DNA of 64,000 bases from Candidatus Moraniibacteriota bacterium (GCA_027031495.1 JALVQA010000006.1:81535-145534); one strand, 5' to 3'. Shown: positions 11,093-64,000, numbered from the stretch's first letter. Numbers and translations: made by a program. Notes: a model not told the origin generated them from the sequence alone.

Positions 11093-11148
11093 CATGCTTG
11101 CGCTTTTTTGCGCGATAGCATACAATACATGACGTATGGTTGTATATT

Positions 11149-11222
11149 GGGGGCGTAGCTCAGCTGGTTAGAGCGTCTGCCTGTCACGCAGAAGGTCGCC
11201 GGTTCGAACCCGGTCGTCCCCG
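11149..11222 (+). tRNA. tRNA-Asp (GTC)
   Basis: GGGGGCGTAGCTCAGCTGGTTAGAGC, anticodon loop CTGTCAC, T-arm GCCGGTTCGAACCCGGT, acceptor pairs incl. G-U, discriminator G. Confidence 0.85.
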
Positions 11223-11251
11223 CAGAAGCATAAAAACACGTAAATTTCTAC

Positions 11252-30361: not shown

Positions 30362-31267
30362 TTACGCAACATCAGTTGCGCGGTCGTAGGCCTTGTGGAC
30401 GTCGTCGTTCTGGATGTTGTAGTAGACCTGTGACGACGCCGGAGATGAGTGACCGAGGAGTTGCTGGAGATACGGCTGGTACATCTGCGCCGAGGCGAGG
30501 CGCTGGGCGAAGGCGTGACGCATAGAGTGTGGCGTCTTCCCTGTTATGCCAACGGCGCGACAGCGCGCTCGGAATATGCGCTCTACTTGCCGCGTTGTGA
30601 GGCGGCCGGTTCCGCGCAGTCCGACAAACAGCGCGCGCTCGCTCTTTTTGTGCAGTGTAGCGAGTATCGGCAACCAGCCGCGCAGAACACGCTCCGTTTC
30701 CGGCGTGAACGGAATGCTCCGGTATCCTGCTGCGTCGCGGCGTTTGCGTGTGATTGCCAGCACTTCCCTGCGGTCCAGGTCCACATCGCCTACATTGAGT
30801 GCGACAAGTTCAGAGACGCGCATACCGGTGTCGTACAGGAGCGTGAGGAGCGCCTCGTCACGAATGTCGGCAGTCGTCTCACGCGTGAATGTGCCACGCA
30901 GCAGTTGCCATTCATTGGTCGTCAGCGGCTTGTGGTGGCGTGCTCGGATGCGACCGCGAATTGGGATGGCATCGTGGCGCATCTTGAGTTGCAGTCCGTG
31001 ATGATCTGCCAGTACGCGCTCGCAGAACTTCCAGAGCTGTCGGAGAGCGATGAGGTGGAGATTGGCGGTTGTCTCTGACTTCCCCTCCCTGATGAGCTTC
31101 TGCGAGTACGGCAAGATGTGGTCCATCACGGTTACCTCCTCAATGGCAGTGTCACTCGCATAGCATGCGAATTGGCGGCAGATGTTTGTATAGATGGTCA
31201 GCGTGCGCTGGGTGTAGCGGTGAACACCCCACGCAAAGAATTGGTCTACTGCTTCGTGTATGGTCAT
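30362..31267 (-). CDS. int: Tyrosine recombinase/phage integrase (start moved to internal MTIHEAV; upstream hairpin overlaps the longer ORF)
   Basis: C-terminal catalytic motifs HSMRHAFAQRLA and LLGHSSPASSQVY (R..H..R..Y); N-terminal SAM-like core-binding domain. Confidence 0.9.
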   Translation of the reverse strand: MTIHEAVDQFFAWGVHRYTQRTLTIYTNICRQFACYASDTAIEEVTVMDHILPYSQKLIREGKSETTANLHLIALRQLWKFCERVLADHHGLQLKMRHDAIPIRGRIRARHHKPLTTNEWQLLRGTFTRETTADIRDEALLTLLYDTGMRVSELVALNVGDVDLDRREVLAITRKRRDAAGYRSIPFTPETERVLRGWLPILATLHKKSERALFVGLRGTGRLTTRQVERIFRARCRAVGITGKTPHSMRHAFAQRLASAQMYQPYLQQLLGHSSPASSQVYYNIQNDDVHKAYDRATDVA

Positions 31268-31298
31268 ACACGTAGTGTTATAGCGAATTATTGCACAT

Positions 31299-31329
31299 AA
31301 AAAAACCAACGGGGGTCTAGTCCCGTTGG
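31299..31329 (-). terminator. Intrinsic terminator (minus strand) CCAACGGG-loop-CCCGTTGG + T7 ending the phage minus-strand operon before int
   Basis: 8-bp stem followed on minus strand by TTTTTTT. Confidence 0.6.
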
Positions 31330-39076: not shown

Positions 39077-40831
39077 CTACCGCACACCGAGTGTCGCCAG
39101 CCGGTAGTCATCCGCCAGTGCCGTGCGCACGCGGTCAATGAGTGTCTCGTCCGTGAGTGTTGCACCGCGCAGATCTATGTTGACCGTCACGCCAGGCGCT
39201 GATTGCACAGCATCGCGTGGCTGCTCTATGCGCCCAGACTGCGTTGGCACGAACATCTCCGGACCATTCTCTCCCACCATATATGGCCGCCCGGCTGTTA
39301 CGGTACCACCGGTGGCACGGCGTGAGAAATTGAACTCCTTAATGTTTGGAAGTCCGGGAATACGGTTATACGAGCGAATTGCTTTATTTACAAGTCGTCC
39401 AATAATACCAAGTTTCCGACGAATCCAGTCCATAGCACCAGAGAATGCATTTTTTATTGCACTTCCCATTCTCTGAAATGCTCGGCTGATACTCCCAGCT
39501 ACTGCTGCACCAAAACGTTTAACCTTGTCCCAATTTTTGATGATAAGGTATGCTCCAGCGACAATTCCGGTGATGATTGCCCCACCAATAAGAAACGGTG
39601 CTGCTGCAGCAGCAACAGGAGCAAAAGCCGCCGCTACAGCAAGGAGTGACCGAACAAGCGTTCCGCTGAGAATGCTGGATATTTTTAGAAAGCCGCCTGT
39701 TAAACGTCCAACGTTGCCGATAATGCTAACAAATGATATAGCAGATGTTGCAACTTTCAGTGCCTCCCACGCTGCTACGGCATATAAAATCGCCTTCCCA
39801 TTATCCACAAGAAAAACAGTCAATTTTCCTATCGCAGGGAGCATCTTGTTGAATATGATATCGGCCGTAGATTTAAGTCTATTCAATATTCCACGCGGAC
39901 CACCAAGTTCATCAACGAGTTTCTTTGCGCCATCAATTGCTTTCTTCATCCACACAATCATCTCGTTAGCAATTTTTTCTTTGTTTGCACTCAACCAACC
40001 CATCATATCCTCTGCGGACTTTTTCAACATCGCAAAAATAGATCCCTCTCTTATGTCACCACGCTGATTAATTCCGACAATTTCTCGTGCAATATTCCCT
40101 ATATCATCGCGTAGATTTGACATAATTCCATTGAACGATTTACTCTGACGCTCCATTCCCTGAAAGAACAAACCTCCCTCACTCGTCATGCGGCGCAGTG
40201 CATCAGTGACATTATCGGATGTAACTTTGCCTGATGATATCATCTTTTCCAACTCTCCACGCGTGACTCCGAATATCTTTTGCAATTCGCCACCTAAATT
40301 GACACCTGCCTCAGTGAATTGAAGCAATTCTTGTCCCATCAACTTGCCCTTTGCCTGGACCTGCCCAAATGCAGTGATGAGTTGCGGTAATTTATCTGTG
40401 CCAACACCGGACGCAATATCACCCAACATCTTGAATGTTGGAATAATTTTTTCTGCTGAAATATTATACGCAAGTAATCTCTTTGAGCCTTCAACAACTT
40501 GCGGAAGGTCAAATGGTGTCTTTGATGCAAAGTCGGAAATACGCTTTAAAAGCGAACTTGCTTCATCTGCACTTCCAAGCATTGACTCAAAAGCGATGCG
40601 GTTCTGCTCAAATTGCGCAGCGCTACGTACAGCGAAAAAACCTGCAGTCGTCATACTTCCGGCAAGTCCAGCAAGAGCATACTTCGCAGCATTCGCAGCG
40701 CGACCAATAAGCCCAAGTTCCTTCTCAAAGCGACTTCCAAGTCGCCCTGCCGTCGCATTGAGCTTGTCTAATTCACGCATCGCATTGTTCCGCGCGTCTA
40801 TGACGATTTGTAGTTTTGCTGTCTTTTCCAT
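39077..40831 (-). CDS. Tail tape measure protein
   Basis: 584 aa, coiled-coil rich with G/A-rich hydrophobic segment AVAAAFAPVAAAAAPFLIGGAIITGIVAGAYLII; sits between chaperone-like gene and Dit. Confidence 0.8.
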   Translation of the reverse strand: MEKTAKLQIVIDARNNAMRELDKLNATAGRLGSRFEKELGLIGRAANAAKYALAGLAGSMTTAGFFAVRSAAQFEQNRIAFESMLGSADEASSLLKRISDFASKTPFDLPQVVEGSKRLLAYNISAEKIIPTFKMLGDIASGVGTDKLPQLITAFGQVQAKGKLMGQELLQFTEAGVNLGGELQKIFGVTRGELEKMISSGKVTSDNVTDALRRMTSEGGLFFQGMERQSKSFNGIMSNLRDDIGNIAREIVGINQRGDIREGSIFAMLKKSAEDMMGWLSANKEKIANEMIVWMKKAIDGAKKLVDELGGPRGILNRLKSTADIIFNKMLPAIGKLTVFLVDNGKAILYAVAAWEALKVATSAISFVSIIGNVGRLTGGFLKISSILSGTLVRSLLAVAAAFAPVAAAAAPFLIGGAIITGIVAGAYLIIKNWDKVKRFGAAVAGSISRAFQRMGSAIKNAFSGAMDWIRRKLGIIGRLVNKAIRSYNRIPGLPNIKEFNFSRRATGGTVTAGRPYMVGENGPEMFVPTQSGRIEQPRDAVQSAPGVTVNIDLRGATLTDETLIDRVRTALADDYRLATLGVR

Positions 40832-45361: not shown

Positions 45362-46447
45362 CTATTTGACGCCTGTGAGCTTGCGCCATGCGTCCTCCAG
45401 TGCCACATTGCCATCCACTGCTTGGTACACGAGAATCTCCGTCTGCATATTGGACAGAATCTCGTCGGTCTTCATCTCCAGGTTCTGACCATCCTTGATC
45501 CAGTAGTAGAATGGGTCGCCGATGTACATCTCCGTCTCATTGCTTCCGGTACCGAGGTTCTCAGGGATGTTGCCAGTCTCCAGCAGCTCCTTACCGAACA
45601 AACGGTCAAGCGGCTGTCCTGCCGGGAACAGCGGACGGCTGTTGCTGTCCTCCAGTGACACCGTCTTCTTCACCGCACCGGTAGAACCGATGAATACAGC
45701 GTTCTTGCGATACTGCACCGGCAACTCAAAGTACAGATCTACGAGATCAGAGTACGCGAGTGCTGCACCGCTCTGTGCGATAGAACTGATTGACGCGCTG
45801 CGCAGACCGGTTGGCTGAGCGCTGCCGGAACCGGCAATGAACGCCTCCTCCTCTTTCTGCGCCAGTGCGCGACCGGCGATTGCGGAGATGTAGTTCACGA
45901 TGCCAACAGCAGATGTGTCCATCAACTTCCACGGTGCCAAAACACGCGCAGCGAGGTAGTGATCGTCCAGCGTCAAGCTACCGGTCGTTGGTGCGGACTC
46001 TGTGACACTTGCGTTCTCAGCTACCCAGTATGCAGTGACAGACACCGACTCCTTCGGCAACTGGAACTTCCCGGAGAACGAGAAGCTGAATGCGCGTCCG
46101 CGCAATACGCTCTCCGCATCCTTCTTCTCCAGGATCTTATCAGCAAGCGTCGTCGGAACCGTGCTCCCAAACGAACCGCTACCAGTGTCAATCGCCTTCA
46201 CACCGTGCTGCTCGTGCTTGCTTGGCGGCAGAACGAGCGCCTTGATGAAGTTTGCGGCTTCCGCCACCTTCTCCTCATTGAGCGCCTCGTCATTCTTTGC
46301 CGCCATTGGCAACTTCTCTGTGTTGATGAAGCCCTTCTCATCCACAATGCCCATCTCACGCAACTCGTCAGCAGTCGCTGTTTTCACGAGCTCGCCGAGG
46401 GCAACCTTCTCACCATCCACCTCCACCAATAAGTCTTTCAACTTCAT
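45362..46447 (-). CDS. Major capsid protein, HK97 fold
   Basis: 361 aa; follows prohead protease; HK97-like segments (AWVAENASVTES..., ALAQKEEEAFIAGSGSAQPTGL). Confidence 0.8.
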   Translation of the reverse strand: MKLKDLLVEVDGEKVALGELVKTATADELREMGIVDEKGFINTEKLPMAAKNDEALNEEKVAEAANFIKALVLPPSKHEQHGVKAIDTGSGSFGSTVPTTLADKILEKKDAESVLRGRAFSFSFSGKFQLPKESVSVTAYWVAENASVTESAPTTGSLTLDDHYLAARVLAPWKLMDTSAVGIVNYISAIAGRALAQKEEEAFIAGSGSAQPTGLRSASISSIAQSGAALAYSDLVDLYFELPVQYRKNAVFIGSTGAVKKTVSLEDSNSRPLFPAGQPLDRLFGKELLETGNIPENLGTGSNETEMYIGDPFYYWIKDGQNLEMKTDEILSNMQTEILVYQAVDGNVALEDAWRKLTGVK

Positions 46448-47493: not shown

Positions 47494-49692
47494 TCACACC
47501 TCTATTTCCGGCGCAACACTGCACTGGCAGTTGACGCTCTCGTAGATTGGCAGCGACGGGTCGCTTGGGTACATCGCGTGATGTCCACCGATGGTGAACG
47601 GCTCGTCTATCCCGACGATCTGCCCGTCCGCCTCCGCGTGTGACGCGCGTGTGTTCCGGAACACGGCCGTCCAGATGCGATGTGTCGCGCCAAGCGCTTT
47701 CATCTCTTGCCAGCGTGCAAAGTTCTGCGCGCGTCCGACCTCTGTGCGCGCGATGCGCTCGCTGCGGTAGTCTCGCGCCTCGTCAAACACACGCGCAACG
47801 CGTGCCGACAACTCATCCACCGCATCACCCTCATCAATCCCCTCCTGCAGCGCGAGCGTCAGCTCGTCGCGCGTGTGGATGTTGATCTCATTCGCGAAGC
47901 GCGGCGGGTTCTCCTCCAGGAATTGTTTGGCGGCGTCGGTCCCGAGAATGTCCACCGCCTCCTGCCTGAGAAGCCCGGCAATCGCCACGACACCGTGCTC
48001 AAAGTCTATGCCGTACTGCTCGGAGAGAATTTTCGCCAACGCGTCATTGTCACCCATCACCTCCTCTACTACGGCCGGGATAGTGGTGTCCTTGTGCGCC
48101 TTCGCGCTAAACACCTGTGCGACCTTCTCTATCACAGCACTCTGCTGCTGCGAGAAGTACGCGCGCAGTGCATCGGTGAACTGCTCCTCGCGTTTGTCCA
48201 CCGTTGCGAGATATGCCTTGCGCTCCTTCACGAGCGCCTCCGGCAGTGTTGGTTCATCCTTCGCGCTCTTCGTTGTCAGTCGCACAACTTTCTTCTCCTC
48301 CTGCTTCTTGCGCAGACGGTTCAACGCCCGACGCGCCTTGACGCGCTGTACAACATCGTGCAGTGCTTTGCGTGAATTGTGCGATCGTGCCAATATCGCA
48401 GACTTGATGCGCAGTTGCTTGCGGCTCAACCCGTCAGCAAGTTGCAGCGCCTTCGGCTGCTCACCGTCACCGACCTGCGTACCCTGCGAACGCACATAGA
48501 GAACGTCACCGCCGTCCAGCGGTGGTAGACTGTACCGTGCACGCGCCTCGTTTATCGTGAGCCACACATTGACGCCGAAGCGCGTCTCATCCAGCACCGT
48601 CTTGCGATCCTCCGTAACAGGTGACTCATAGTCTAGCCACGCAGTATCGTCAATTTGCGGCACGAGGAAAGCGTTCAACTGCGAAACGATCAGGCGCAGC
48701 ATCGGGTCCACCGTGTATTTCGCGAGCGTCTCTTCTGCAACCTTCGCGTTCGCATAGGTCGTGTCTTTGGCAAAGAACCCTTCCGGCACACCGAGAATGC
48801 TCAGGATTGCCTGCTTGCTGTTCTTGCGCGTCTCCATATATCCGGCTTCACTTGGTGACTTGCGCCCGGTCTTTCCGATTTTGACGCCACCCTCAAGAAT
48901 CGCCACTTTTCCGGCATTCGTTGGGCCGCCATAGCGCTCCTCCCATGAGTCTCGCAGGCGCTTGTATACAGCGTCAGAAAGCTCGTGTTCCGTCTCCAAC
49001 ACAACATCCGGCTCGCCGTGACGCTCCATGTAGTACTTGTTCCATATCGCGGCAGCAGCGTCCACATCCACTTCTAACGCGCTTGCGGAAAGCGAACTGT
49101 AACCGCGAATCACATCTCGCGGGTCCGGGTCGCGGATGTATACCACATCCTCCGTACTGAACCGCTCCACCTTCCCACCGGCGCGGAACTCATAGTGCGA
49201 CACGGTGCCGTCCGGCTTCTGCTTGATGCTCAACAGGTCCGGGCGCATTGGAAAGAGTCCGACAATGCGGCGACCTTTGCGAATCTTAAAAAGCGGCGCG
49301 GCGCCAAAAAGCTTCAGATATGTAACGACGAGCCCCAACATCTGCACCTTGTCCATAATCGGGTTCGGGCGCTCCAGCAGTGCGATGATTGCGTGGTCCT
49401 CCACGCGCTCCGGCGCGTCGCCTTTGAGCACATAGACATCCAGTGGTGTCGCTGACACGCGGTTAGCGATAATCTTAATGGCAAAATATACCCACCCGGC
49501 GAATGCGTTCAGCGGATCTGTTTCCGCGCTTTTTCGGCGCATAAAATATGAGCCGGTCACCGATGAGAGGAACGGGATGCCGCCGCCATATCCGATAAAT
49601 TTCAGTAGCGCGCCACGCAAGAGAGATTTGATTTTCATAGTTTCGTGATAAATACAAAAAGAGCCCTGCGCGTCCCGACATGTCAGGACCAA
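47494..49692 (-). CDS. Portal protein fused to Mu F-like/SPP1 gp7-like minor head protein domain
   Basis: 732 aa; portal-like N-terminal two thirds; C-terminal ARTEVGRAQNFARWQEM...NCQCSV characteristic of MuF-like head morphogenesis domain. Confidence 0.75.
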   Translation of the reverse strand: MVLTCRDAQGSFCIYHETMKIKSLLRGALLKFIGYGGGIPFLSSVTGSYFMRRKSAETDPLNAFAGWVYFAIKIIANRVSATPLDVYVLKGDAPERVEDHAIIALLERPNPIMDKVQMLGLVVTYLKLFGAAPLFKIRKGRRIVGLFPMRPDLLSIKQKPDGTVSHYEFRAGGKVERFSTEDVVYIRDPDPRDVIRGYSSLSASALEVDVDAAAAIWNKYYMERHGEPDVVLETEHELSDAVYKRLRDSWEERYGGPTNAGKVAILEGGVKIGKTGRKSPSEAGYMETRKNSKQAILSILGVPEGFFAKDTTYANAKVAEETLAKYTVDPMLRLIVSQLNAFLVPQIDDTAWLDYESPVTEDRKTVLDETRFGVNVWLTINEARARYSLPPLDGGDVLYVRSQGTQVGDGEQPKALQLADGLSRKQLRIKSAILARSHNSRKALHDVVQRVKARRALNRLRKKQEEKKVVRLTTKSAKDEPTLPEALVKERKAYLATVDKREEQFTDALRAYFSQQQSAVIEKVAQVFSAKAHKDTTIPAVVEEVMGDNDALAKILSEQYGIDFEHGVVAIAGLLRQEAVDILGTDAAKQFLEENPPRFANEINIHTRDELTLALQEGIDEGDAVDELSARVARVFDEARDYRSERIARTEVGRAQNFARWQEMKALGATHRIWTAVFRNTRASHAEADGQIVGIDEPFTIGGHHAMYPSDPSLPIYESVNCQCSVAPEIEV

Positions 49693-50312: not shown

Positions 50313-51593
50313 TTACATCAATCTTATGCGTGGCTCAGCCGGCTGGACCCAACTCTTGCGCCCGGCGAGTGCATAGCGAATCGCATCCATTGCGTGGTTG
50401 TGCGCGTCCACCGGCGTGTTCGTTGGCTCTTTGTTACGGTCCAGCGCCCACTTGTACTCCTGCAGCTCATCCGCGATGTCGTCAGAGTCCTCTGTGTAGT
50501 ACACCTCGTGGTCGTGGATATAATCAATGCCGGTCCGGATGCTGTCATTCCCCTTCGGCGCAGCGCTAATGTCAAAGTTGTACTCCGCAATCTCCGCAAT
50601 GCTTTTCGGCTCCGATGCGTCTGCGAATATGAGACCATTCACACCGAGCTCCTCCATCCTCTTGGCGATGCGTGCGTTGGTGAGGCCCGTCTCGTAGAGC
50701 AGTTGCCGGACATAGATACGTTCGTTGTGACGCATCACTTCCACCAGCGCAGTCGGATCGTTAGAGAAGCCAAAGTCAAGTCCGTAGAACCGCTCATACT
50801 CCAGCGCCTCGTACTCAGCGACACTGATTGTCTGCCAGTCTGTGAACACGCGGCCGCGTGCACCCTCCGACACAAGCCCCTTGATCATAGAGTAGTAGTG
50901 GCTCGGGTTGCGCGTCTTGTAGCGCTCAAAGTTGTCAATAGTCTTGTCTGCGATGTTCTGGCGATTGCTCTCGTACGTTCCGTGGATGTAGATCGTGTCG
51001 CGCTTCTCGCTGTCCTTCAGGTCCGCCTTGTAGAAGCCATCAACACCGGACTTCGTAAGGTTGAACCAGCGTCTGATAATCCAGTGCTTGCGGTGCGGTG
51101 GGTTCAGAAGCAAGACGATCGTCACATCACCCTTCACTGTACGCAGCGAGTCGTCCAGTTGGATGAAGTCCTCCTCCGCGACCTCGTCCGCCTCTTCTAT
51201 GATCACACAATTGAAGTTCGCCAACGACTTGAGTTTGCTCTTTTGATCATTTGTACTGCGCCGGAAACCCTTCCCAACAATCGTGTTGCCACCGCACTGC
51301 ATCTTCATCTGATTTTCCGTCACGCTCACGCGCGCGGCAATCTCATCATCCAATTCATCGCGCCGGTCCACAGCTTCCTGCCAGATACTATGTCGGACAT
51401 CATTCAGCACAAACCGCATAATCGCGCAGCGGAAGTATGTTGCCGAGAGCAGATTGATGAGCGCATATTGACTGGCTGCGTGCGATCGCCCGGCGGACCG
51501 TCCGCCCATCATGATGATGTACCGCGGCCGCTTGCCGGATGCAGCATTCCCGACAAAGAGTGGTTTGTAGATTTTGTTCACATCAAACATCAC
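50313..51593 (-). CDS. terL: Terminase large subunit
   Basis: Walker A-like IIMMGGRSAGRSHAAS, Walker B-like FNCVIIEEADE, RNaseH-like nuclease region ADASEPKSI...DAHNHAMDAIRYAL. Confidence 0.85.
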   Translation of the reverse strand: MMFDVNKIYKPLFVGNAASGKRPRYIIMMGGRSAGRSHAASQYALINLLSATYFRCAIMRFVLNDVRHSIWQEAVDRRDELDDEIAARVSVTENQMKMQCGGNTIVGKGFRRSTNDQKSKLKSLANFNCVIIEEADEVAEEDFIQLDDSLRTVKGDVTIVLLLNPPHRKHWIIRRWFNLTKSGVDGFYKADLKDSEKRDTIYIHGTYESNRQNIADKTIDNFERYKTRNPSHYYSMIKGLVSEGARGRVFTDWQTISVAEYEALEYERFYGLDFGFSNDPTALVEVMRHNERIYVRQLLYETGLTNARIAKRMEELGVNGLIFADASEPKSIAEIAEYNFDISAAPKGNDSIRTGIDYIHDHEVYYTEDSDDIADELQEYKWALDRNKEPTNTPVDAHNHAMDAIRYALAGRKSWVQPAEPRIRLM

Positions 51594-55636: not shown

Positions 55637-55808
55637 AGCGATAATTCTTAATGTTGTGTTTTTTCAGATCGTCACAGAATTTTTTACTTTCTGAGCGCCA
55701 CTTTTCTTCATAGCGCATATCCTCCGCGTACTCGTACGCAACCGAGAATATAAGAGCAAGGAGCGCAGAGCCAATGATAAATAGGGTCATAATTTTACTG
55801 GTTATCAT
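55611..55808 (-). CDS. Small single-TM phage protein
   Basis: 65 aa, LFIIGSALLALIFSVAY. Confidence 0.3.
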   Translation of the reverse strand: MITSKIMTLFIIGSALLALIFSVAYEYAEDMRYEEKWRSESKKFCDDLKKHNIKNYRYEDSHSRR

Positions 55809-56742
55809 TTACTACAGGGATACAGTCACACTTCGCACCTTTGTGCGATGCACACAGGGCCGTGTGCTGCATCTGCTCCTTTGGACTTTCATCCGGTACC
55901 GACTCCTGCTGTTCGTTCTGTGCCGGACCTTGCGCCGGAGCTGCAGGTGGAGTAGCTGGCGCATTTGCCGCCTCTTTCGCGCGCTTGCGGCGGATGCGCT
56001 CCAGGTCCTGATACACCTTCCGCAGCACATTGATATTCGCCGACGCCAGCGGCATGCCAATCTGCGACTCTATCACACCCTGTGTTGTTCCGAGCTCATT
56101 CATGAGAGAATAGAGACGTTCAAGCGCTTCTTTTGTGACCTTCGGTTGCGTCACTTGGGCGTTTCCGACAGTCTCCGGTGTTGCGTCTGTGTCCTCGTCA
56201 CCGGTCATGATGCCAAATGCGTTACAGAATGCATATCGCTTCGCGAATGTCAAAGCCGCCGCAAACTTTTGTGGGCCACTCATGTATGCCTTCGGGTCAA
56301 TCGGGACACGGAATGACGTCTCCTCACTATGTCCGCCTTCGTGCGTTACGATGACAGTCGCCGTCACACTCGTGTCATCCTGTTGCGTTTTGATTGTGTA
56401 TGAGAGACCATTGCGTGCGATATATTCGCGCACCTGCTCAACGATTGCATCAATAGATGCGTACTTGTATCTCACGGTACGACGGTCTTTCTCCAAGACC
56501 TCTTTTGTTTTGCGAATTGTCGGCAATTCAGATTGACATTTTGCCATAGCGGCAATAAATGCCTTCTTTGCCTCCCTTTGCTCGTAGTCTTTTTGGAGCT
56601 CAAACAGTCGCTCCAAAGTTTCTACGTCAACCTTCTTCTCTATCGCTTGAGCGATGATATTTAGAGTTGTTTGTGGTTGAATTCCCACATCCCTCTCCTC
56701 TTTTGTCGCATCTTGTGCGACTATCTCTTGAGTCGTACTCAT
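55795..56742 (-). CDS. ERF-family single-strand annealing protein
   Basis: KFAAALTFAKRYAFCNAFGIMTGDEDTD ERF signature; Q/P-rich C-terminus. Confidence 0.8.
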   Translation of the reverse strand: MSTTQEIVAQDATKEERDVGIQPQTTLNIIAQAIEKKVDVETLERLFELQKDYEQREAKKAFIAAMAKCQSELPTIRKTKEVLEKDRRTVRYKYASIDAIVEQVREYIARNGLSYTIKTQQDDTSVTATVIVTHEGGHSEETSFRVPIDPKAYMSGPQKFAAALTFAKRYAFCNAFGIMTGDEDTDATPETVGNAQVTQPKVTKEALERLYSLMNELGTTQGVIESQIGMPLASANINVLRKVYQDLERIRRKRAKEAANAPATPPAAPAQGPAQNEQQESVPDESPKEQMQHTALCASHKGAKCDCIPVVNDNQ

Positions 56743-56807: not shown

Positions 56808-57293
56808 TTACTCCACCGCGCTGATAATTCTCGCACATGTCCACGGCCGCCATCCAAAGCGATCGTAGATTTTGCGCGCATACGCGATGTTTTGACGCGC
56901 GTCCAACAGTTTCTGCGCTGTCAGTCCCGCGTACTTCACCCGACCCGGTAAGAGTCGGATTTGGAACACTCCATACGAGGAGTATGCCGTGTGCGTGTCT
57001 CCCACACGCGACGGATCCAGGCGACTTTCGCAGTGTGCAATGCGCACTGCCGTGTCCGGGTCCTCCGGGAATGTCTCCCGGATGAGACGCTCAATCGCAT
57101 CTCGGTCAAGTTGTCTTTCGTCATCACATACCACATCAATGAGTCCGCACGGGTCCGGTGCCGTGTATTCTGCTTCCGGCACCTCTGCCGCGACCGCGAC
57201 GTCAGTGTGCAGGGTGATGACCTCACGCGCATCTGTATTCAGCGCGTTTGCTGCTGTAAAAATGACAGCAGCGGAAATGAGAATATATCTCAT
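56808..57293 (-). CDS. Secreted lytic transglycosylase (SLT domain), endolysin candidate
   Basis: Signal peptide MRYILISAAVIFTAANA; VRIAHCESRLDPSRVGDTHTAYSSYGVFQI SLT catalytic-Glu motif. Confidence 0.8.
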   Translation of the reverse strand: MRYILISAAVIFTAANALNTDAREVITLHTDVAVAAEVPEAEYTAPDPCGLIDVVCDDERQLDRDAIERLIRETFPEDPDTAVRIAHCESRLDPSRVGDTHTAYSSYGVFQIRLLPGRVKYAGLTAQKLLDARQNIAYARKIYDRFGWRPWTCARIISAVE

Positions 57294-57575
57294 ATCTGAG
57301 CATTTACAGCGGATACGCGTCCGCGTCAGCGCTCACCCTAGAAAATAAAAAAACTGCCGTTTGGCAGTATTGTTGTTGTTATTTATACAGAAAGGTCGGA
57401 CAACTCAAATTGTGCGACATAATATAAATATCAAAACAGCACAATTTCAGAAGGATAAGAACGTATTGTTCCTCTATTTATTTTTTTGCAAGAGAAAACT
57501 TTTTTACAATTTCTTGATAGATCCACTTTCATTCATTACGCCACACAATCAAAAAGTTTGTGTGTCCCTTGTTTC

Positions 57576-58176
57576 GTTTCTACTCCTCTCTTTTAAAGGA
57601 TGTTTCTAAAACATAAAAATATGATACAAAAGCGAAAGGGGGTGAGTTTCTACTCCTCTCTTTTAAAGGATGTTTCTAAAACCGCACCGTGACGAAGTCA
57701 CGGAGTGCGCTCTCCGTTTCTACTCCTCTCTTTTAAAGGATGTTTCTAAAACTCAAACTCCGCAACGCGCTCATCGTGTGTGTCTTGTTTCTACTCCTCT
57801 CTTTTAAAGGATGTTTCTAAAACCTGACGCCTCCACCTATGACGCGCGCGCGCTCGGTTTCTACTCCTCTCTTTTAAAGGATGTTTCTAAAACAAACGGA
57901 CGAAAAATACGGAAATTTCTCATAATGTTTCTACTCCTCTCTTTTAAAGGATGTTTCTAAAACATGCGGTTCGTGAAGGACTACTACACGAATTCTGGTT
58001 TCTACTCCTCTCTTTTAAAGGATGTTTCTAAAACTTTTTGTGCGAGGTATGAAGTTACACATGTACTAGTTTCTACTCCTCTCTTTTAAAGGATGTTTCT
58101 AAAACAGGTGTTACGTAAGCAGTTGCGCCGAGAAATTGAGTTTCTACTCCTCTCTTTTAAAGGATGTTTCTAAAAC
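57576..58176 (-). CRISPR. CRISPR array, 9 identical 37-nt repeats GTTTCTACTCCTCTCTTTTAAAGGATGTTTCTAAAAC (plus strand), 8 spacers of 33-35 nt. Inferred to be transcribed on the minus strand from the cas2-proximal side
   Basis: Repeats at 57576, 57646, 57716, 57787, 57857, 57927, 57998, 58069, 58140; 5-nt partial repeat GTTTC at 57571-57575 at the prophage-proximal (trailer) end. Confidence 0.95.
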
Positions 58177-58345
58177 CGCAAGATATGGCGTACTTAAGGC
58201 AAAAACGCTGTTTTCATTGTAAAGCATTTTCGCGTATTTTTGTGTAAAATCCCTTTTTTGAGCCATTTCTTGTGTGCAAACCTTGTAGCAGATCATTTTC
58301 ACAATTACTGCCTTTTCCAAAGGTTTTGCGCGATTTATGAATATG

Positions 58346-58500
58346 AGAAAGAAAAACTGCTTGCAGTATGCACACCGTAAGCAGTTTTTCACATCCTTTG
58401 AAAGAGAGGCGCTTTATGCGCCATCATTCCCCGTTTTTAGTAGCGGAGAATGAGCACAAAGGGTCGAAACAAAATGGAATGACCCCCTGTATCTTCAGTA
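58346..58500 (-). ncRNA. Candidate tracrRNA: anti-repeat (58384-58412) immediately followed on the minus strand by hairpin ACTGCTT/AAGCAGT (58356-58385) and T-tract; upstream hairpins GCGC-TTTAT-GCGC and GGGTC..GACCC
   Basis: Inverted degenerate repeat copy complementary to repeat nt 1-28 (GTTTT and ACATCCTTT-N-AAAGAGAGG), 3' terminator; boundaries approximate. Confidence 0.4.
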
Positions 58501-58511
58501 TATAACGTCTT

Positions 58512-58829
58512 CTAAAAAATCGCAATATGCGGTTCATCATAAACGCGTGACGTTGTTCCGTAGCGGCGGATACGCTTCTCAATTGATTGTGGAATCGGAA
58601 TAATGATCAATGCTTCGTCTTTTTTGTTTTTTACGAGAAATTTACTGTGCTGCAGACGTGCCATAAATTCACGTTTCCGTGCCGGTGTGAGAAAAAATTC
58701 AAAAATTGAATATTGTGTACGCACACCGAATTCTTCAAGGATTTTAACAAGACGTCGTCGCCGACGATCATCTGACACATCAAAAGCAACAAAAAATCTT
58801 TCTCTTTGCGCACTCATACGCGCTTCCAT
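58512..58829 (-). CDS. cas2: Cas2
   Basis: 105 aa; ERFFVAFDVSDDRRRRRLVKILEEFGVRTQYSIFEF Cas2 N-terminal pattern. Confidence 0.85.
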   Translation of the reverse strand: MEARMSAQRERFFVAFDVSDDRRRRRLVKILEEFGVRTQYSIFEFFLTPARKREFMARLQHSKFLVKNKKDEALIIIPIPQSIEKRIRRYGTTSRVYDEPHIAIF

Positions 58830-59812
58830 TCAAATGGCTTAAAGGTATCGCGATCACCAATGAGAATCTGTGCAAGTTGACGCACATCACGCTCCATGAG
58901 CGCTACAAGTGTGCGGTTTTCCGCAAAGTGATCGTAGCGAATAAACCGTGACCACTTTGGAAAAAACGTTCCGTATCCGTGTCGTGAGAGCGAAACGACA
59001 CCACCATCATCTGTTGTAAAATCTTTCTGTGTAAATTCTCTACGATTGACGCTACGCAACACAAAATATTCAATTGGTCCACGATAAATTTCCAAGAAGT
59101 CACTTGCAAGCGCGGCATGGCCGTATTTTTGATCATGGAGAAAGCCAACATATGGATCAAGACCAACGATCATAATATGTGTAACGAGTTCCGCGTGAGC
59201 AAGTGTATAGCAAAAACTTAAAAGCGCATTTAACGGATCGGTTGCCGGATGCTTTATGCGTCCGGGAAATACAAAGTCCGCATTATTTTTAACAAGTGAC
59301 GCATCTCGCCATATGCGAAAGTACTGACGTGCTGCAGTACCTTCCATGCCACGTATAGTATCAAGTGATAAATTTTGAGATACATTATCCGGCAATGTAT
59401 TAAGACGTTGCGTTGCACGCATCTTTTTTAATACACGATTTTGATTGATAATCTTACCACGCACAAATGTATATGCCATTTCTCGCCGCTTTTCTTTGTC
59501 ATCGTGCCACTTAAATTGCGCATGACGCAGAAAAACATTTTTTGTGTAATCATAGAGCACGGAAGCGACAAAACGGCCTTTACCATCTATAAAGTGAATT
59601 GGCACGTGATTTGTACGTGCCAATGATAACACTTTATTTGTGAGTGTTACATCACCGAAAATTACAATATCGCGCGTTGAAAGCGCTGGAAATTTTTCAC
59701 GTATATCACCAGCTTTTGTGCGAATGGCAAAATTTTGTCCACTTACACTGAGTGTGTCATCAAAACGTGCGCGATAATAGACCGTTGATTTCCCTTCCGT
59801 CAATAACGTCAT
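58814..59812 (-). CDS. cas1: Cas1
   Basis: NALLSFCYTLAHAEL and GLDPYVGFLHD hallmark Cas1 motifs; 332 aa. Confidence 0.9.
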   Translation of the reverse strand: MTLLTEGKSTVYYRARFDDTLSVSGQNFAIRTKAGDIREKFPALSTRDIVIFGDVTLTNKVLSLARTNHVPIHFIDGKGRFVASVLYDYTKNVFLRHAQFKWHDDKEKRREMAYTFVRGKIINQNRVLKKMRATQRLNTLPDNVSQNLSLDTIRGMEGTAARQYFRIWRDASLVKNNADFVFPGRIKHPATDPLNALLSFCYTLAHAELVTHIMIVGLDPYVGFLHDQKYGHAALASDFLEIYRGPIEYFVLRSVNRREFTQKDFTTDDGGVVSLSRHGYGTFFPKWSRFIRYDHFAENRTLVALMERDVRQLAQILIGDRDTFKPFEWKRV

Positions 59813-59856: not shown

Positions 59857-60453
59857 CTATAAATAACACAAGTCACGGAAACAACATCCGTCACATCTTG
59901 CATCACGGTGTTGCGGAAAATCATGTGGGTCAAGCAAGTCTTTTTGTAAACGTTTGTAGACAGCATCAGCAAGTACTATTGCTTCTTTTTGCTCATCATC
60001 GCCAAGCGTGTATCGCTTTCGCTGGCGATCGCCGGTAAAGAAAATTTCACCATACGTAAGATGTGATGATGAAAACATTTCACGCAGACACAGTGCTTGC
60101 AGGGCGAGCTGTTGGCGATGTGCAGGATTTGTACGCTTTTTACCACGCTTAAATTCAACCGGCACAATTACATTGTGCGGATAGAATTCTACAACATCCA
60201 CTACACCACTGATACCGTACTGTCGCGAGTAAATACGCAATGATGATTGTACGCGTAGAGCATTGCGATGACGTGTATATGGTTTATCCACCACGCGATG
60301 CGCCGCACGACCATCTTGGATATATGTATTTTCATCTCGCACACGTGGTGCGTCCGTCAGGAGATAGTAGGTGCTGCGCGGGCAATATGCATACTCAGCA
60401 ATGAACGATAGCGGAATAAGTGGTCGGTCAGTCTGTGGTGCTTTCTGTGACAT
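59857..60453 (-). CDS. cas4: Cas4 (RecB-like nuclease with Fe-S Cys cluster)
   Basis: N-terminal YAYCPRSTYY and C-terminal CDGCCFRDLC; overlaps effector stop by 26 nt. Confidence 0.85.
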   Translation of the reverse strand: MSQKAPQTDRPLIPLSFIAEYAYCPRSTYYLLTDAPRVRDENTYIQDGRAAHRVVDKPYTRHRNALRVQSSLRIYSRQYGISGVVDVVEFYPHNVIVPVEFKRGKKRTNPAHRQQLALQALCLREMFSSSHLTYGEIFFTGDRQRKRYTLGDDEQKEAIVLADAVYKRLQKDLLDPHDFPQHRDARCDGCCFRDLCYL

Positions 60454-63400
60454 GGCGTTTGGCGAACTGTGGTGATTTCAGCATAAAGAGTTTTAGTGTG
60501 GAGAGAATGCCCTTTTCCGTACATGCGACAAGCTCTTCCTCTGTTGCAACTAACTTGAAGTAGTACTTTAGTGCGATGTTTTGTGCAGCTTGTTCGTCGG
60601 CATCGCATGATGCGCCACAGTACTGACAGTGAAATTGCGCTTTTTGTCCACGACCATAATTCTCTTCATTTTCTGTACGCTGTGCCAAATGAATTGCTGC
60701 GAGAATCTCACGAAGTGTATATGTGTCATCACTAAGATTGCAACGTACATGCGCGTCAGTACCATCACTAAATGTTAGATGTAGTGCGTTGTTAGTAACT
60801 ATGATTGACTGATTGTTGTTATTCTCTCTAAAATATCGCTCAACTTCATATGTTGTACAGTATCCACAAGCACGACAGGTTTGCGAGGTTTTTGCCGCAC
60901 CGATGACAGCGCCAATCTGTGCATACTTTACACCCCAGATATGTGCGCGCACCGCAGCATCTGCTTCATTACTCGTACCACTGATAATATCTGCTGTTTT
61001 GAGTGTCTTGTAGAGTTTCGCAATCCGCTGTCCCCCACTCTCAAAGCCGTCCACAGAGTCTTCGTAAATCGGAATCGCATTGTACTTCAGTGCCAACGCG
61101 TGGATTTGATTGCGCACCGTACCGGCGGCCAGTTCGCGGATTTTTGCCAGGTGCGTTGTCGGGCGTGTGAAGAGTCCGGCGCTCTGCGTGTCGCGCCATG
61201 ATGCCGCTTCTGCGCGCATCTGTTCCAAATACGGCACTTCTATGAAACTGCTTTCCACAAACTGTTCTGTGCGCGGATCAAAGACGGCGTAGCCAAAGCC
61301 ATATTCGCCAAGGTCGATGCCCAGGAGCATTTGCTCGCGGCGATACTGTTTTTGATTTTTTCCATCGGCGTTGCGGAGGCAGATATTCGCACCTTCCAGA
61401 CACCGCGTCTCCTCCACAACTTCTCCATGGCGGTCACCATCACCTTTGGCGATGGAAAACGGCAGTGCCCAGTAGAGTGTTTGTTTACCGGGAATGATTT
61501 GCACAGCGCCATCTGTATCACGATGAACGTTTTGAACTTGTTCGTAGATGATTGATCCGCCCTGGATGCTCTCTACCAGTTGCTCCGTGCGATCACCCCA
61601 CAAAAAGCGCTCCAAGAATTGCTTTTGCACGCGGGAGGTTTCCAGTGGGAGGCGGTAGTAGTAATATCCGCCAATCGTCCCGTTAACAGATGCACGCGAA
61701 ACATGTTTTGGCTTAAAAACAGATTTCTTTTGTGATTTTTCAAAGAAAAGTCCGCTATTTACCTGTGACAATCCTTCTATCGGTAGTTTTGTACACAGAA
61801 TCATTGCCCAGCGATGTGGCAATTCACCCAATACACGCGTTAATGCGCGTGCATCGCTTGCTGATGTGGTCTTCAGTCTTTGCCAAATGTGCGTTGCGAT
61901 TTCTTGCGGCTCGCTTGTCGTGTCAATATCCTGTGTGCGCAAGATATTTTGCGCTTCCGTGGAGAGTTGTTTTTGTTGTGCAAAACGCTTCTTGAGGCGC
62001 TTTTGCGCACGCCGGTAGCGCCGGCGTTGCGGTGCAGTCATTTGCCGCAAATCATCATCAGATTTTTCTGTGAAAGACATTTCGCCCCATGACAATGGAA
62101 TGTACTCAAGAATACTTTGCTCACCGTTTGTAACTTGCAAAACGACACGGTCAATATAGGATGTGCGTGACAATAGCGAGAGTTTTCCGCGGATTTCAGT
62201 GCCGATTGCAGCGGCGACAAATCGTTGGAAGTGTGTGCGCGGCATATCATCACTACGCACTGTACCATTTTGCGGATTACTGTACAGCAAATTTGCAAGT
62301 TTTCGTTCACGCAATATACGCCACTGTGGCCGCTCGGATGGTAGATGAATATTTTTTGGCAACCAACGCAACTGCAATCCCCAATATATTTTCAGTAATT
62401 CCCCACCATCAATATTGATTGGTTTTTGTGGTTGGTTGAGATAAAAGAGATCTTTGATTATTCGCTTATCTGTGAGTTGATTTAGTTTAAATGTCACACC
62501 AAAATCATGTAAAAACGTTTTTGGGTCGTATAAAAGATTTTCGCGCAGTGGCATCGGCGTATAGTGAAAGCGATGGTATGGTGTCACAAGAAAACGCAAA
62601 AAACGGCGATCTTTGGTGTGCCACCACTTCTTGAGATCATCACTCTTTTCGTGATTATTTATGGCGTCCCAATCAATATATCGCTCCAAAAATGCCCATA
62701 CCGGTGCGCCGTCACGCATACGCAGAGCGAGATCCTTCAATCGTTCCAGTGTTTTGAGTGCGTGGGCACGACCGTTTTTGCGATATTCTTGACCAAACCA
62801 TTCAGTGCGCAAATGCTCACGATCTTCATTGGATAGTAAGTTACGTTGATGTGCTGTAGTAATGAGATCTTGGCCGGCAAGAACAAGGTCTACTAATTCC
62901 TCTGCCGCATTCTCAATTATTTTTGCCGGATCACGTTGTGCCTGTTTGATAAACCGTGGGTAGCGCTCCAGCGCGCTTGGAATCATGGCTTTCTTCCAAA
63001 ATCCGATAATGTTTTGGTCGGTGTCGCGTGTTGATTCTTTTGCCTCACTTTTTTTCTTTTTCCGATCAACTATTGCATCAAACACATCACCAAAAAGTTC
63101 TTTCTCATCCGTATTGTTATGTATGGGAACACCTTCATTGTTCCACTTTGCTAAAAACTCGCGAAATTCCTGCAACACGTCAGTATAGTCGTCCAAAAGT
63201 TTGCCAAGATTTTTGCTTCGTTTTTGCAACGCTTCAGCAAGACGTGGTTGTAACTCGCGTAATAATTCAAAGTTCATTACTTGTTCTTGCGGAAATAGTC
63301 TTCTGTACGCCGTTTTAGCAATTGTATCAAAGATTGCGCGATGCGTCCTGGCGTTTTTCCGGGTATCACCTTCAGTATTCTCCACAAGATGTGCTTCGTA

Positions 63401-64000
63401 ATCATTGAGGCGGTTTTCAAAGTTGGACAACCATGACTGCAATCGTCCGCCAACAAGTGTACGGTAATCTGCCCAATTTATACGAAGAAATTCCACATCC
63501 TTTGCAACAGGAATTTTAGTAGCATACTCATGAACACGTTCGGCTAAACGTCTCAAATAGTGTGGATTCTGCGCGAAAAATGCCGGGTTTCCACGCGCTA
63601 TAAGAGATGTCGCATCTTCTACCGATGCGCGAAAAGTTTCTAGTGCATCACCCCAAAGATTGCTTAGTGCATTTTGATTATCTGCAACGCCAGCAAGACT
63701 TTGAATTGTTCGCATGCCGCTCGTTTGGTGCATTGCCGGCAACAGATGTTCAAAATAAGCAGTGTAGATATCAATTGGCTGTACGCATCGCGTGGATAAA
63801 AGCTCTTCACTCATTGGGAGAATAATGAACGTGTTTTTATCTTGTTTGACAGCAATGGGATTTGTTATACCGAATATTTTTTGCAACCCCTCGCCATCAA
63901 CAACATTGTGTTTGCGGGCATATGCAACAAATGCATCATTGATCTGTTTGATTATCGGATAGTCTCCTATATTATCTTTCGTAACTCTGTCCTCTGTAAA
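60428..64000 (-). CDS. cas12: Large Cas12-family (type V) effector, N-terminus beyond window (>1190 aa); RuvC-I GIDLGEYGFGYAVFD, RuvC-II IPIYEDSVDGFESG, zinc finger CRACGYC...CQYCGASC, RuvC-III DADEQAAQNIALK
   Basis: Split RuvC in C-terminal third with Zn ribbon between RuvC-II and III (TnpB/Cas12 architecture), no HNH; frame continues open from TTG at 63886 to window end. Confidence 0.8.
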   Translation of the reverse strand, partial: FTEDRVTKDNIGDYPIIKQINDAFVAYARKHNVVDGEGLQKIFGITNPIAVKQDKNTFIILPMSEELLSTRCVQPIDIYTAYFEHLLPAMHQTSGMRTIQSLAGVADNQNALSNLWGDALETFRASVEDATSLIARGNPAFFAQNPHYLRRLAERVHEYATKIPVAKDVEFLRINWADYRTLVGGRLQSWLSNFENRLNDYEAHLVENTEGDTRKNARTHRAIFDTIAKTAYRRLFPQEQVMNFELLRELQPRLAEALQKRSKNLGKLLDDYTDVLQEFREFLAKWNNEGVPIHNNTDEKELFGDVFDAIVDRKKKKSEAKESTRDTDQNIIGFWKKAMIPSALERYPRFIKQAQRDPAKIIENAAEELVDLVLAGQDLITTAHQRNLLSNEDREHLRTEWFGQEYRKNGRAHALKTLERLKDLALRMRDGAPVWAFLERYIDWDAINNHEKSDDLKKWWHTKDRRFLRFLVTPYHRFHYTPMPLRENLLYDPKTFLHDFGVTFKLNQLTDKRIIKDLFYLNQPQKPINIDGGELLKIYWGLQLRWLPKNIHLPSERPQWRILRERKLANLLYSNPQNGTVRSDDMPRTHFQRFVAAAIGTEIRGKLSLLSRTSYIDRVVLQVTNGEQSILEYIPLSWGEMSFTEKSDDDLRQMTAPQRRRYRRAQKRLKKRFAQQKQLSTEAQNILRTQDIDTTSEPQEIATHIWQRLKTTSASDARALTRVLGELPHRWAMILCTKLPIEGLSQVNSGLFFEKSQKKSVFKPKHVSRASVNGTIGGYYYYRLPLETSRVQKQFLERFLWGDRTEQLVESIQGGSIIYEQVQNVHRDTDGAVQIIPGKQTLYWALPFSIAKGDGDRHGEVVEETRCLEGANICLRNADGKNQKQYRREQMLLGIDLGEYGFGYAVFDPRTEQFVESSFIEVPYLEQMRAEAASWRDTQSAGLFTRPTTHLAKIRELAAGTVRNQIHALALKYNAIPIYEDSVDGFESGGQRIAKLYKTLKTADIISGTSNEADAAVRAHIWGVKYAQIGAVIGAAKTSQTCRACGYCTTYEVERYFRENNNNQSIIVTNNALHLTFSDGTDAHVRCNLSDDTYTLREILAAIHLAQRTENEENYGRGQKAQFHCQYCGASCDADEQAAQNIALKYYFKLVATEEELVACTEKGILSTLKLFMLKSPQFAKRHVTESTTD

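Follow-up and report, generated by a model that had tools for sequence, protein, structure and literature searches.

Within a 64,000-nt stretch of a Candidatus Moraniibacteriota genome (GCA_027031495.1 JALVQA010000006.1:81535-145534; hereafter the window), we found a class 2 type V CRISPR-Cas locus that is probably complete and seems functional; its effector most likely represents a deep branch of the Cas12d lineage, and its other parts are unlike those of the described V-D systems. What sets it apart from each Cas12d system described so far is the association of a Cas12d-like effector with a full set of acquisition genes, with repeats and spacers that are both long, and with a predicted helper RNA that mixes features of tracrRNAs and scoutRNAs. 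Our literature search found no published description of the system carried by this clade. All features described below lie on the minus strand, and positions are counted from the first base of the window.

The window contains the C-terminal 1190 codons and the stop of the effector gene (60428-64000). The initial annotation had described a minus-strand ORF still open at the window edge and had suggested completing its N terminus from the flanking sequence. Both points held: the stop codon is at 60428-60430, and on the source contig (L001, ENA ERZ23491057 scaffold_31) the gene runs 156 codons past the edge to a start codon 468 nt beyond it, giving a full-length protein of 1346 aa. The RuvC motifs and the zinc ribbon are also where they had been placed. 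The RuvC-I motif GIDLGEYGFGYAVFD provides D1052 (61313-61315), the RuvC-II motif IPIYEDSVDGFESG provides E1136 (61061-61063), and the RuvC-III motif CDADEQAAQNIALKYY provides D1291 (60596-60598). The zinc ribbon consists of a first CxxC at 60866-60877 (Cys codons 60875-60877 and 60866-60868) and a second at 60617-60628 (Cys codons 60626-60628 and 60617-60619), corresponding to C1198, C1201, C1281, and C1284 of the full-length protein. The catalytic triad, whose absence had been named as a possible refutation, is intact, and the three acidic residues and the four cysteines are invariant in the alignment of all 12 full-length homologues. The triad aligns with D828, E914, and D1074 of KbCas12d (CasY.1) in the P0054 numbering used here, in which D828/E914 correspond to the catalytic residues given as D827/E913 in the preprint (bioRxiv 10.1101/2023.12.12.571249). 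The description of the protein as a Cas12 type with a zinc-ribbon Nuc/TNB domain and without an HNH insertion was confirmed. Its RuvC-I motif had been called Cas9-like, and the pattern G-x-D-x-G-E-x-G-x-x-[YW]-[AS]-[VI] is indeed present, but it is not peculiar to this effector and is found also in Cas12c2 and canonical Cas12d.

Sequence comparisons identify the effector as a distant relative of Cas12d (CasY), homologous along its whole length. On the NCBI curated Cas12d/CasY equivalog model NF033951.2, it scored 366.4 bits (E 4e-109), over the cut-off of 250; canonical Cas12d members scored 540-1099 bits and true Cas12c proteins 117-145 bits on the same model. Cas12d was its top match in a PADLOC search, and a canonical Cas12d profile built from 30 proteins aligned with it end to end, profile positions 4-1117 of 1149 covering effector residues 2-1313 of 1346 as a single domain (411 bits, E 1e-125). 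On the Cas12c model NF033950, the effector reached 101.8 bits, under the cut-off of 250, whereas the true Cas12c proteins P0119, P0141, and P0154 scored 304-548 bits. The initial annotation had concluded that the system matches no known subtype and had named a full-length match to an existing one as the finding that would speak against this. For the protein the conclusion fails, because the Cas12d model is passed and the alignment to Cas12d runs end to end, and excluding V-D on the adaptation genes alone was a mistake. For the remainder of the locus it stands, as the adaptation module, the repeats and spacers, and the helper RNA all depart from V-D.

A search for related effectors returned about 18 cluster representatives among 1.84 billion that matched over the full length at >450 bits; canonical Cas12d proteins scored 80-157 bits in the same search, mostly over the C-terminal RuvC-containing region. 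The hosts of the clade are mostly Peribacteria/Gracilibacteria metagenome-assembled genomes (MAGs); the early reading of a probable CPR genome can be counted as right, and CPR hosts are something the clade has in common with V-D. The effectors of the 12 closest homologues are 1253-1373 aa long, compared with ~1100-1300 aa in V-D. A bootstrapped neighbour-joining (NJ) tree on corrected p-distances, a rough method, supported the core clade at 100% and separated canonical Cas12d from it at ~90%, so that by this tree the effector clade branches outside canonical Cas12d. With Cas12c as the outgroup, the clade fell on the Cas12d side, in a basal grade with P0022, P0025, and P0026; the placement of these intermediates and of P0028 in the NJ tree is provisional. 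On average, effectors of the core clade are 22% identical to canonical Cas12d and 21% identical to Cas12c, while these two, which are separate subtypes, are 18% identical to each other.

The separate cas4, cas1, and cas2 genes first reported beside the effector are borne out by strong family matches. The cas4 gene (198 aa; 59857-60453; TIGR00372, 100.9 bits; PADLOC Cas4c, 7e-41) overlaps the effector stop by 26 nt and is an ORF distinct from cas1 (332 aa; 58814-59812; TIGR00287, 217.7 bits), with 44 nt between the two; cas2 (58512-58829), recognized by family matches, encodes 101-105 aa according to the start codon chosen. Wherever the flanks of a related locus reach far enough, all three genes stand beside the effector, whereas Cas1 is alone in all four of our canonical V-D control loci, consistent with the cas1-only adaptation module published for V-D (PMC10691335; bioRxiv 10.1101/2023.12.12.571249). 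The Cas1 proteins differ as well. That of the clade shows 20-25% identity (17-44 bits) to the Cas1 of three canonical V-D loci and gave no BLASTP alignment at E <= 10 with that of the fourth, while among the canonical V-D Cas1 proteins identity is 38-54%; judged by sequence, the clade Cas1 is not orthologous to V-D Cas1. The nearest models for the Cas1 of the window are of type I-C/I-D-like Cas1, with 213 bits on the I-C model, under its cut-off.

The CRISPR array (57576-58176) consists of nine identical 37-nt repeats (GTTTTAGAAACATCCTTTAAAAGAGAGGAGTAGAAAC, minus strand) and eight spacers of 33-34 nt. The segment that separates the first repeat from the helper-RNA terminator (58177-58346) is by its position the presumed leader, and we identified no promoter within it. 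Repeats of 37 nt are found in 9/9 related arrays, which have spacers of ~29-35 nt and reach 31 repeats. In the canonical V-D controls, repeats measure 25 nt and spacers 16-19 nt (three of the four loci have detectable arrays), in line with the 25-26-nt repeats and unusually short 17-19-nt spacers reported for V-D (bioRxiv 10.1101/2023.12.12.571249). A search for spacer targets in the window, the related loci, and viral contigs gave no match.

Adjoining the array and co-oriented with it, we predicted a helper RNA of ~145 nt (58347-58490), preceded by a sigma-70-like promoter (TTGCGA, 17 nt, TATACT; 58497-58525). Its 5' hairpin 1 (58456-58490), with the loop AUUCCAUUUUGUUUC, is followed by hairpin 2 (~58423-58454), hairpin 3 (58408-58422), the anti-repeat CCUCUCUUUCAAAGGAUGU (58391-58409), and an intrinsic terminator (58347-58390), and the predicted fold has an energy of -56.1 kcal/mol (z = -6.75). 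In 11 loci the promoter is followed by the hairpin, the anti-repeat, and the terminator in this conserved order, and the RNA points the same way as the array in all cases, including those in which it has been moved (L012) or inverted (L014). In eight related loci, a TTGAC-type -35 hexamer (TTGACT/TTGACA) lies between cas2 and hairpin 1. Promoters, terminators, and conservation are our grounds for the predicted RNA ends and for the proposed transcription direction and processing route.

Covariation across the clade supports the tracr-like RNA that the initial annotation had noted. The anti-repeat is 18-28 nt long and co-varies with the repeat of its own locus: the complementarity score is 16-20 with the own repeat (11 in the distant L014) and 5-10 with the repeats of unrelated loci. 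Hairpin 1 has compensatory changes in 5/5 stem pairs, and its covariation score of 0.45 compares with 0.21 for shuffles (1/500 as high) and 0.06-0.24 when slid. The loop pentamer is complementary to the 3' end of the repeat in 7/9 loci, with a compensatory GUUUG/CAAAC in L012; in the sister loci L008 and L010, it has no complementarity to the repeat end.

The published scoutRNA and crRNA of KbCas12d and the canonical loci show the same loop-pentamer/repeat-end design: a 5' hairpin with a large loop, on whose 3' side a pentamer complements the five final bases of the repeat, in an RNA that adjoins the array in the same orientation. The clade RNA adds to this the 18-28-nt anti-repeat, which is absent from the published KbCas12d scoutRNA sequence, and further hairpins. 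We detected no sequence similarity between it and canonical scoutRNAs; our helper-RNA covariance model had no match in the canonical loci L021-L024, and in Rfam the RNA matched no family. As described in papers citing Harrington et al. 2020, a scoutRNA is an untranslated RNA of short complementarity. That of the helper RNA is not short, because the same molecule bears the long co-evolving anti-repeat, and a separate RNA whose anti-repeat co-evolves with the CRISPR repeat is, as far as prediction goes, a tracrRNA.

We propose the following working of the system. By homology, Cas4, Cas1, and Cas2 would choose protospacers of ~33-34 bp and integrate them into the array at its cas-proximal end. 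The array would be transcribed on the minus strand in the direction of the cas operon, as is partly evident from its sequence, and the ~145-nt RNA would be transcribed from a separate promoter, located directly behind cas2, as far as the intrinsic terminator. Guide assembly would involve two contacts. At the first, the 19-nt anti-repeat would pair with repeat positions 10-28, to which it is complementary and with which it co-evolves; at the second, the pentamer GUUUC of the conserved hairpin 1 loop may pair with the final five bases of the repeat, GAAAC, adjacent to the spacer, a contact paralleling that of GCCUU with AAGGC in the published KbCas12d scoutRNA. The proposed two-site pairing resembles that in V-C, where the tracrRNA of Cas12c1 touches the repeat via several short duplexes, one of them spacer-proximal (PMC9723637). 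Processing could follow the V-B/V-E route, in which host RNase III cuts the long duplex, or the V-C route, in which the RuvC site of the effector does the cutting. The effector, loaded with crRNA and helper RNA, would then read a 5' PAM and cut DNA by its single RuvC site. A 5'-TR PAM and helper-RNA-dependent dsDNA cleavage are among the characteristics of V-D.

The subtype rank of the clade is a question of nomenclature, not of biology. It is possible, although we lean against it, that the clade stands apart as a third branch of the Cas12c/Cas12d superfamily and merits a subtype of its own rather than a position in V-D. The identities to Cas12d and Cas12c, set against the lower identity between those two subtypes, would fit such a branch, as would the score on the Cas12c model, which lies above that of most canonical Cas12d proteins (none to 82 bits), and a locus organisation unlike both V-C and V-D, V-C loci having cas1 only (PMC10691335). 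The score on the Cas12d model, well over that of true Cas12c, and the provisional position in the basal grade on the Cas12d side argue for keeping the clade with Cas12d. Tentatively, the helper RNA of an unclassified third branch might be an evolutionary intermediate between tracrRNA and scoutRNA. If this were true, the canonical V-C and V-D systems would have lost the long anti-repeat and gained the Cas1-only module and short repeats and spacers, and the present system would show directly how scoutRNAs evolved and would provide a Cas12d-type nuclease using normal-length guides.

For the deep-branching Cas12d-lineage effector that we favour, DNA cleavage is not certain, because, according to a review (PMC11127173), certain Cas12c enzymes have been reported to bind DNA but not to cut it. 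An effector that is guided by RNA to DNA and silences without cleaving would be in keeping with its closest solved structures: in a predicted model of moderate quality (pLDDT 69.8, pTM 0.40), the top fold matches were Cas12c2 and Cas12c1 (7v93, 7vyx), followed by CasX. We nevertheless consider binding alone unlikely. Neither the D/E/D residues nor the zinc ribbon varies across the clade, Cas12d is reported to cleave dsDNA (PMC11127173; bioRxiv 10.1101/2023.12.12.571249), and the retained adaptation module and the long arrays fit active immunity.

That the locus is an ordinary, already described V-D (CasY) locus with trivial differences is more improbable still. The equivalog cut-off is passed, the alignment to canonical Cas12d is full length, and KbCas12d has an array-adjoining, co-oriented helper RNA too (bioRxiv 10.1101/2023.12.12.571249). 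However, the control loci and the tree largely refute this view: the Cas1-only module, the 25-26-nt repeats, and the 16-19-nt spacers are all missing, Cas1 is non-orthologous, the effector, ~22% identical to canonical Cas12d, branches outside that clade, and the anti-repeat has no counterpart in the KbCas12d scoutRNA.

The kinship to V-B (Cas12b) or V-E (CasX) proposed in the initial annotation has next to no chance of being right, and we rejected it on effector homology: the effector scored 39.4 bits on the Cas12e model NF045604 (cut-off 200), over the RuvC/TNB region only, and none of the Cas12b models matched it in HMM searches, even if CasX is the next predicted fold match after Cas12c. 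CasX, at ~980 aa, is also ~370 aa shorter. The cas4 and cas1 genes are unfused, unlike in V-B, where cas4 is fused to cas1 (PMC10691335). The gene order of effector, separate cas4, cas1, and cas2, tracrRNA, and array does resemble V-E, and a dependence on the long repeat:anti-repeat duplex would, by analogy, work in the V-E fashion.

The minus-strand ORF that ends at position 60428 and is still open at the window edge (60428–64000) is a real gene, and the RuvC and zinc-ribbon motifs listed in the initial annotation were found where it had placed them. The N-terminus was completed from flanking sequence: the gene is whole in L001, the source contig (ENA ERZ23491057, scaffold_31), located by an exact match of the Cas4 protein, where it starts 156 codons past the window edge and encodes 1,346 aa. 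The effector scored 366 bits (E 4e-109, cut-off 250) on the NCBI curated Cas12d/CasY equivalog model, compared with 102 bits on the Cas12c model (cut-off 250) and 39 bits on the Cas12e model (cut-off 200), and the top-ranked PADLOC family was also Cas12d. Because the NCBIfam match was shown mainly over the C-terminal stretch, we built a profile of 1,149 positions from 30 canonical Cas12d proteins found among the matches of an exhaustive phmmer scan, including P0054 (1,125 aa), which we take to be KbCas12d/CasY.1. The effector aligned to this profile end to end as a single domain (profile positions 4–1117 of 1,149, residues 2–1313, 411 bits). With a confident full-length match to Cas12d, the earlier claim that the system fits no known subtype thus does not hold for the protein; the RuvC-I motif, described there as "Cas9-like," is common to Cas12c and Cas12d.

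All 12 homologues compared keep residues D1052, E1136 and D1291 unchanged, together with the four cysteines of the zinc ribbon. The same D/E/D triad and CxxC...CxxC motif align with those of canonical Cas12d, including D827/E913 of KbCas12d, which are catalytic in that enzyme (bioRxiv 10.1101/2023.12.12.571249). An AlphaFold2 model of the 1,190-aa fragment was of moderate quality (pLDDT 69.8), and its best structural matches were Cas12c2 and Cas12c1 (E 1.6e-20 to 1e-17), followed by CasX and then Cas12a; no chain named Cas12d came up in either search of our PDB copy. All 13 proteins from the first homologue search lacked a functional name in their source records, three being labelled only "hypothetical protein."

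The effector nevertheless lies outside canonical Cas12d. Among 5.8 billion proteins searched, only 12 were related to it over the full length, at 35–75% identity. In the exhaustive phmmer scan, which covered 1.84 billion cluster representatives with a single sequence as the query, about 18 representatives (the core clade) matched over the full length at >450 bits, and a sharp break followed. Below the break came a few intermediates (P0022, P0025, P0026 and P0028) and, beyond them, a cloud of 1,100- to 1,300-aa proteins matching at 80–157 bits, mainly over the C-terminal RuvC-containing region. The cloud members scanned were either Cas12c or canonical Cas12d, the latter matching the NCBI model from end to end at 540–1099 bits. 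In a neighbor-joining tree of 50 sequences with 200 bootstrap replicates, the core clade was monophyletic in 100% of replicates, as was Cas12c, and canonical Cas12d split from both in ~90%. On average, core-clade proteins shared 22% identity with canonical Cas12d and 21% with Cas12c, and the latter two groups shared 18% with each other. With Cas12c as the outgroup, the core clade and the intermediates formed a basal grade on the Cas12d side of the tree. The host labels of the related contigs were mostly Candidatus Peribacteria (a class of Peregrinibacteriota) or Gracilibacteria. Some metagenome-assembled genomes carrying the system bear implausible names (Rickettsia typhi, Rickettsia sp., Rhizobium sp. 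and Alphaproteobacteria, for L008, L009, L010, L007 and L013); these are probably mislabelled submissions.

The locus around the protein is built differently from that of canonical V-D. Downstream of the effector and on the same strand lie separate cas4 (59857–60453), cas1 (58814–59812) and cas2 (58512–58829) genes, as the initial annotation had read them, all with strong family matches. They are followed, again on the minus strand, by a CRISPR array (57576–58176) of nine identical 37-nt repeats and eight spacers of 33–34 nt. The three adaptation genes accompany the effector in every related locus with enough flank (L004, L005, L007–L012, L014, L015 and L017–L020), including those of the deep-branching intermediates P0026 (L014, 1,561 aa) and P0022 (L020, 1,227 aa); at 239.5 bits, P0026 falls slightly short of the cut-off (250) of the NCBI Cas12d model. 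A profile search for the loci of the intermediates returned that of P0022 and not those of P0025 and P0028. All related arrays found have 37-nt repeats, with the consensus GTYTRAAC...RTAGAAAC in the orientation of the cas operon, and spacers of ~29–35 nt. The four canonical V-D control loci (L021–L024) all contain cas1 only, and the arrays detectable in three of them have 25-nt repeats ending in AAAGGC and 16- to 19-nt spacers. This agrees with the 2023 TnpB/Cas12 census, in which V-D is associated only with cas1 (PMC10691335), and with the literature definition of Cas12d/CasY, a minimal locus with cas1 only, 17- to 19-nt spacers and a scoutRNA.

One could suppose that the array and the adaptation genes belong to a neighboring, unrelated system. 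We rejected this reading, since they are present with the effector in every flanked locus and since the anti-repeat of the helper RNA also tracks the repeat. Cas1 identity among the canonical V-D loci is 38–54%, whereas the Cas1 of the clade is only 20–25% identical to them or not alignable, and its nearest models are of the I-C/I-D type. Judged by these comparisons, the adaptation module of the clade is a different module, not an enlarged V-D one, which plausibly explains the differing repeat and spacer lengths. The locus combines an effector of the Cas12d lineage with a system of different construction; naming it a V-D variant or a new subtype is a question of nomenclature.

Several loci showed local peculiarities. 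L007 has a lone degenerate copy of its own CRISPR repeat (GTCTGAACCAAGAATTTTTAAAGTTGAAAGTCGTAGAAAC, 4165–4204) that lies well away from the array, in the interval separating cas4 from the effector gene, and in L005, L007 and L019 this interval holds 0.5–0.9 kb of unexplained sequence. Identical spacers occur twice within one array in L011 (17169–17269, adjacent copies) and in L017 (two copies with one spacer between them), which suggests local duplication of repeat-spacer units. In the control locus L021, a 501-aa gene adjoining cas1 (3167–4672) has weak PD-(D/E)XK and RNase_H_2 domain matches and might encode a Cas4-like accessory nuclease of the canonical CasY system.

Between cas2 and the array, on the array strand, we found a putative gene for a helper RNA with the same order of elements in every locus: a sigma-70-like promoter, a hairpin with a conserved loop (hairpin 1), one or two variable hairpins, an anti-repeat of 18–28 nt complementary to the repeat of the same locus, and a rho-independent terminator. 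In the window, the promoter is at 58525–58497 on the minus strand (TTGCGA-17-TATACT) and the RNA, predicted from sequence and fold, spans about 58490–58347 on the same strand. Its fold has an energy of –56.1 kcal/mol (z = –6.75 against shuffles) and leaves the anti-repeat single-stranded. The complementarity of the helper RNAs to their own repeats scored 16–20, compared with 5–10 for the repeats of unrelated loci, and cross-locus scores exceeded the latter range only among close relatives. Between the window and L017, a G-to-A difference in the repeat is mirrored by a C-to-T change in the anti-repeat. The RNA is also co-oriented with the array where the locus has been rearranged, having moved downstream of the effector in L012 and being part of an inverted array-plus-RNA unit in L014. 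In L012, the gene (6865–7010) lies just downstream of the effector and is followed by an apparent tRNA gene on the opposite strand, and the adaptation genes and the array are upstream in divergent orientation.

The stem of hairpin 1 differs among the loci, and its ~15-nt loop, (C)UUUAMAUUUUGUUUC, is kept. RNAalifold predicted no structure for the ungapped hairpin 1 alignment, as the stems of different loci do not line up in it, and we analyzed the hairpin using per-sequence folds and a covariance-model alignment. The covariance model gave one strong match per training locus and a weak independent match in L017, all at the expected place, and no match in the four canonical V-D loci. Compensatory changes were present in all five stem pairs, and the covariation score was 0.45, compared with 0.21 for shuffled alignments, 1 in 500 of which scored as high, and 0.06–0.24 with the pairing slid, although fitting the alignment to the covariance model favors structure in this test. 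Neither the helper RNA nor the repeat has a family in Rfam; the sole match there, a Phe_leader on the far side of the array, was below threshold (E 0.12) and was dismissed.

In the scoutRNA of KbCas12d, a stem closes off a large loop that has GCCUU on its 3' side, complementary to AAGGC, the last five repeat bases beside the spacer (sequences in the preprint supplement). The same arrangement is visible in the canonical loci L021–L023. Hairpin 1 resembles it in carrying GUUUC at the 3' side of its loop, with a repeat ending in GAAAC. The loop pentamer is complementary to the repeat end in seven of the nine loci for which both are known, including a G–U wobble variant, GUUUU, in L009 and a compensatory pair in L012 (GUUUG in the loop, CAAAC at the repeat end); the exceptions are the sister loci L008 and L010. 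In L014, which has an array of 37-nt repeats, pentamer and anti-repeat are contiguous and together complement the last 25 nt of the repeat, at its 3' end. The helper RNA is thus complementary to the repeat at two sites and co-evolves with it. Given the shared design of the hairpin, we read the RNA as a classical anti-repeat joined to a module resembling a scoutRNA. The putative interaction at two sites recalls the solved structure of Cas12c1, in which repeat and anti-repeat form multiple duplexes (PMC9723637).

We infer from these sequence patterns that the helper RNA is transcribed, pairs with the repeat and is required. In the proposed mechanism, Cas4-Cas1-Cas2 would acquire spacers of ~33–34 bp, and the array and the helper RNA would be transcribed from the minus strand. 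The anti-repeat would pair with repeat positions 10–28 in the window and 1–22 in most relatives, and the loop pentamer would provide a second contact at the repeat 3' end. Processing would be carried out by RNase III or by the RuvC site of the effector, which would also cleave PAM-flanked DNA; acquisition, processing and cleavage are assigned here by homology to characterized families (review PMC11127173).

Searches of the openly available full-text literature turned up no account of a system of the Cas12d lineage that has cas4-cas1-cas2, 37-nt repeats or a long anti-repeat. The system is not a new kind of immunity but extends a known one: effectors of the Cas12d lineage also occur with the full Cas4-Cas1-Cas2 set, normal-length spacers and a true anti-repeat. 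It makes testable how scoutRNAs originated from tracrRNAs, whether the adaptation module or the effector determines spacer length in V-D, and what share each of the two RNA–RNA contacts has in guide loading and processing. In practical terms, it provides Cas12d-like nucleases that take longer guides and offers a ready single-guide RNA design.

None of the 125 spacers of nine arrays significantly matched the window, the prophage next to the array included, or any of the loci retrieved, and none of three window spacers was found exactly in IMG/VR viral contigs, so that a PAM could not be derived. The prophage, matched by none of the eight window spacers, is complete-looking and of siphovirus type. 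It covers ~27 kb from an integrase gene (30362–31309) to a lysozyme-like/SLT-like lysin gene (56808–57293), abuts the trailer end of the array, and has a GC content of 52–57%, compared with 40–47% in the flanks. Between these limits are genes for the tape measure (39077–40831), major head (45362–46447), portal (47494–49692), large terminase (50313–51593) and ERF recombinase (55795–56742), and the prophage also encodes a protease, an exonuclease and an HTH replication protein. A perfect palindromic hairpin at 57353–57368 (ACTGCC-GTTT-GGCAGT), with A-runs and T-runs on either side, resembles a bidirectional terminator; it separates the lysin gene from the distal end of the array.

A bacterial 16S rRNA gene is located at 5276–6863 (1,421 bits); at 1,588 nt, compared with 1,533 nt for the model, it may carry an insertion. 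Rfam detected no 23S or 5S gene anywhere in the 64-kb window, and the rRNA genes thus look unlinked; both unlinked rRNA genes and 16S insertions are known traits of CPR bacteria. The window contains five tRNA genes, among them a cluster of two tRNA-Met (CAT) and one tRNA-Asp at 10750–11223. The paired tRNA-Met genes may represent an initiator and an elongator, or one of them may be a tRNA-Ile2.
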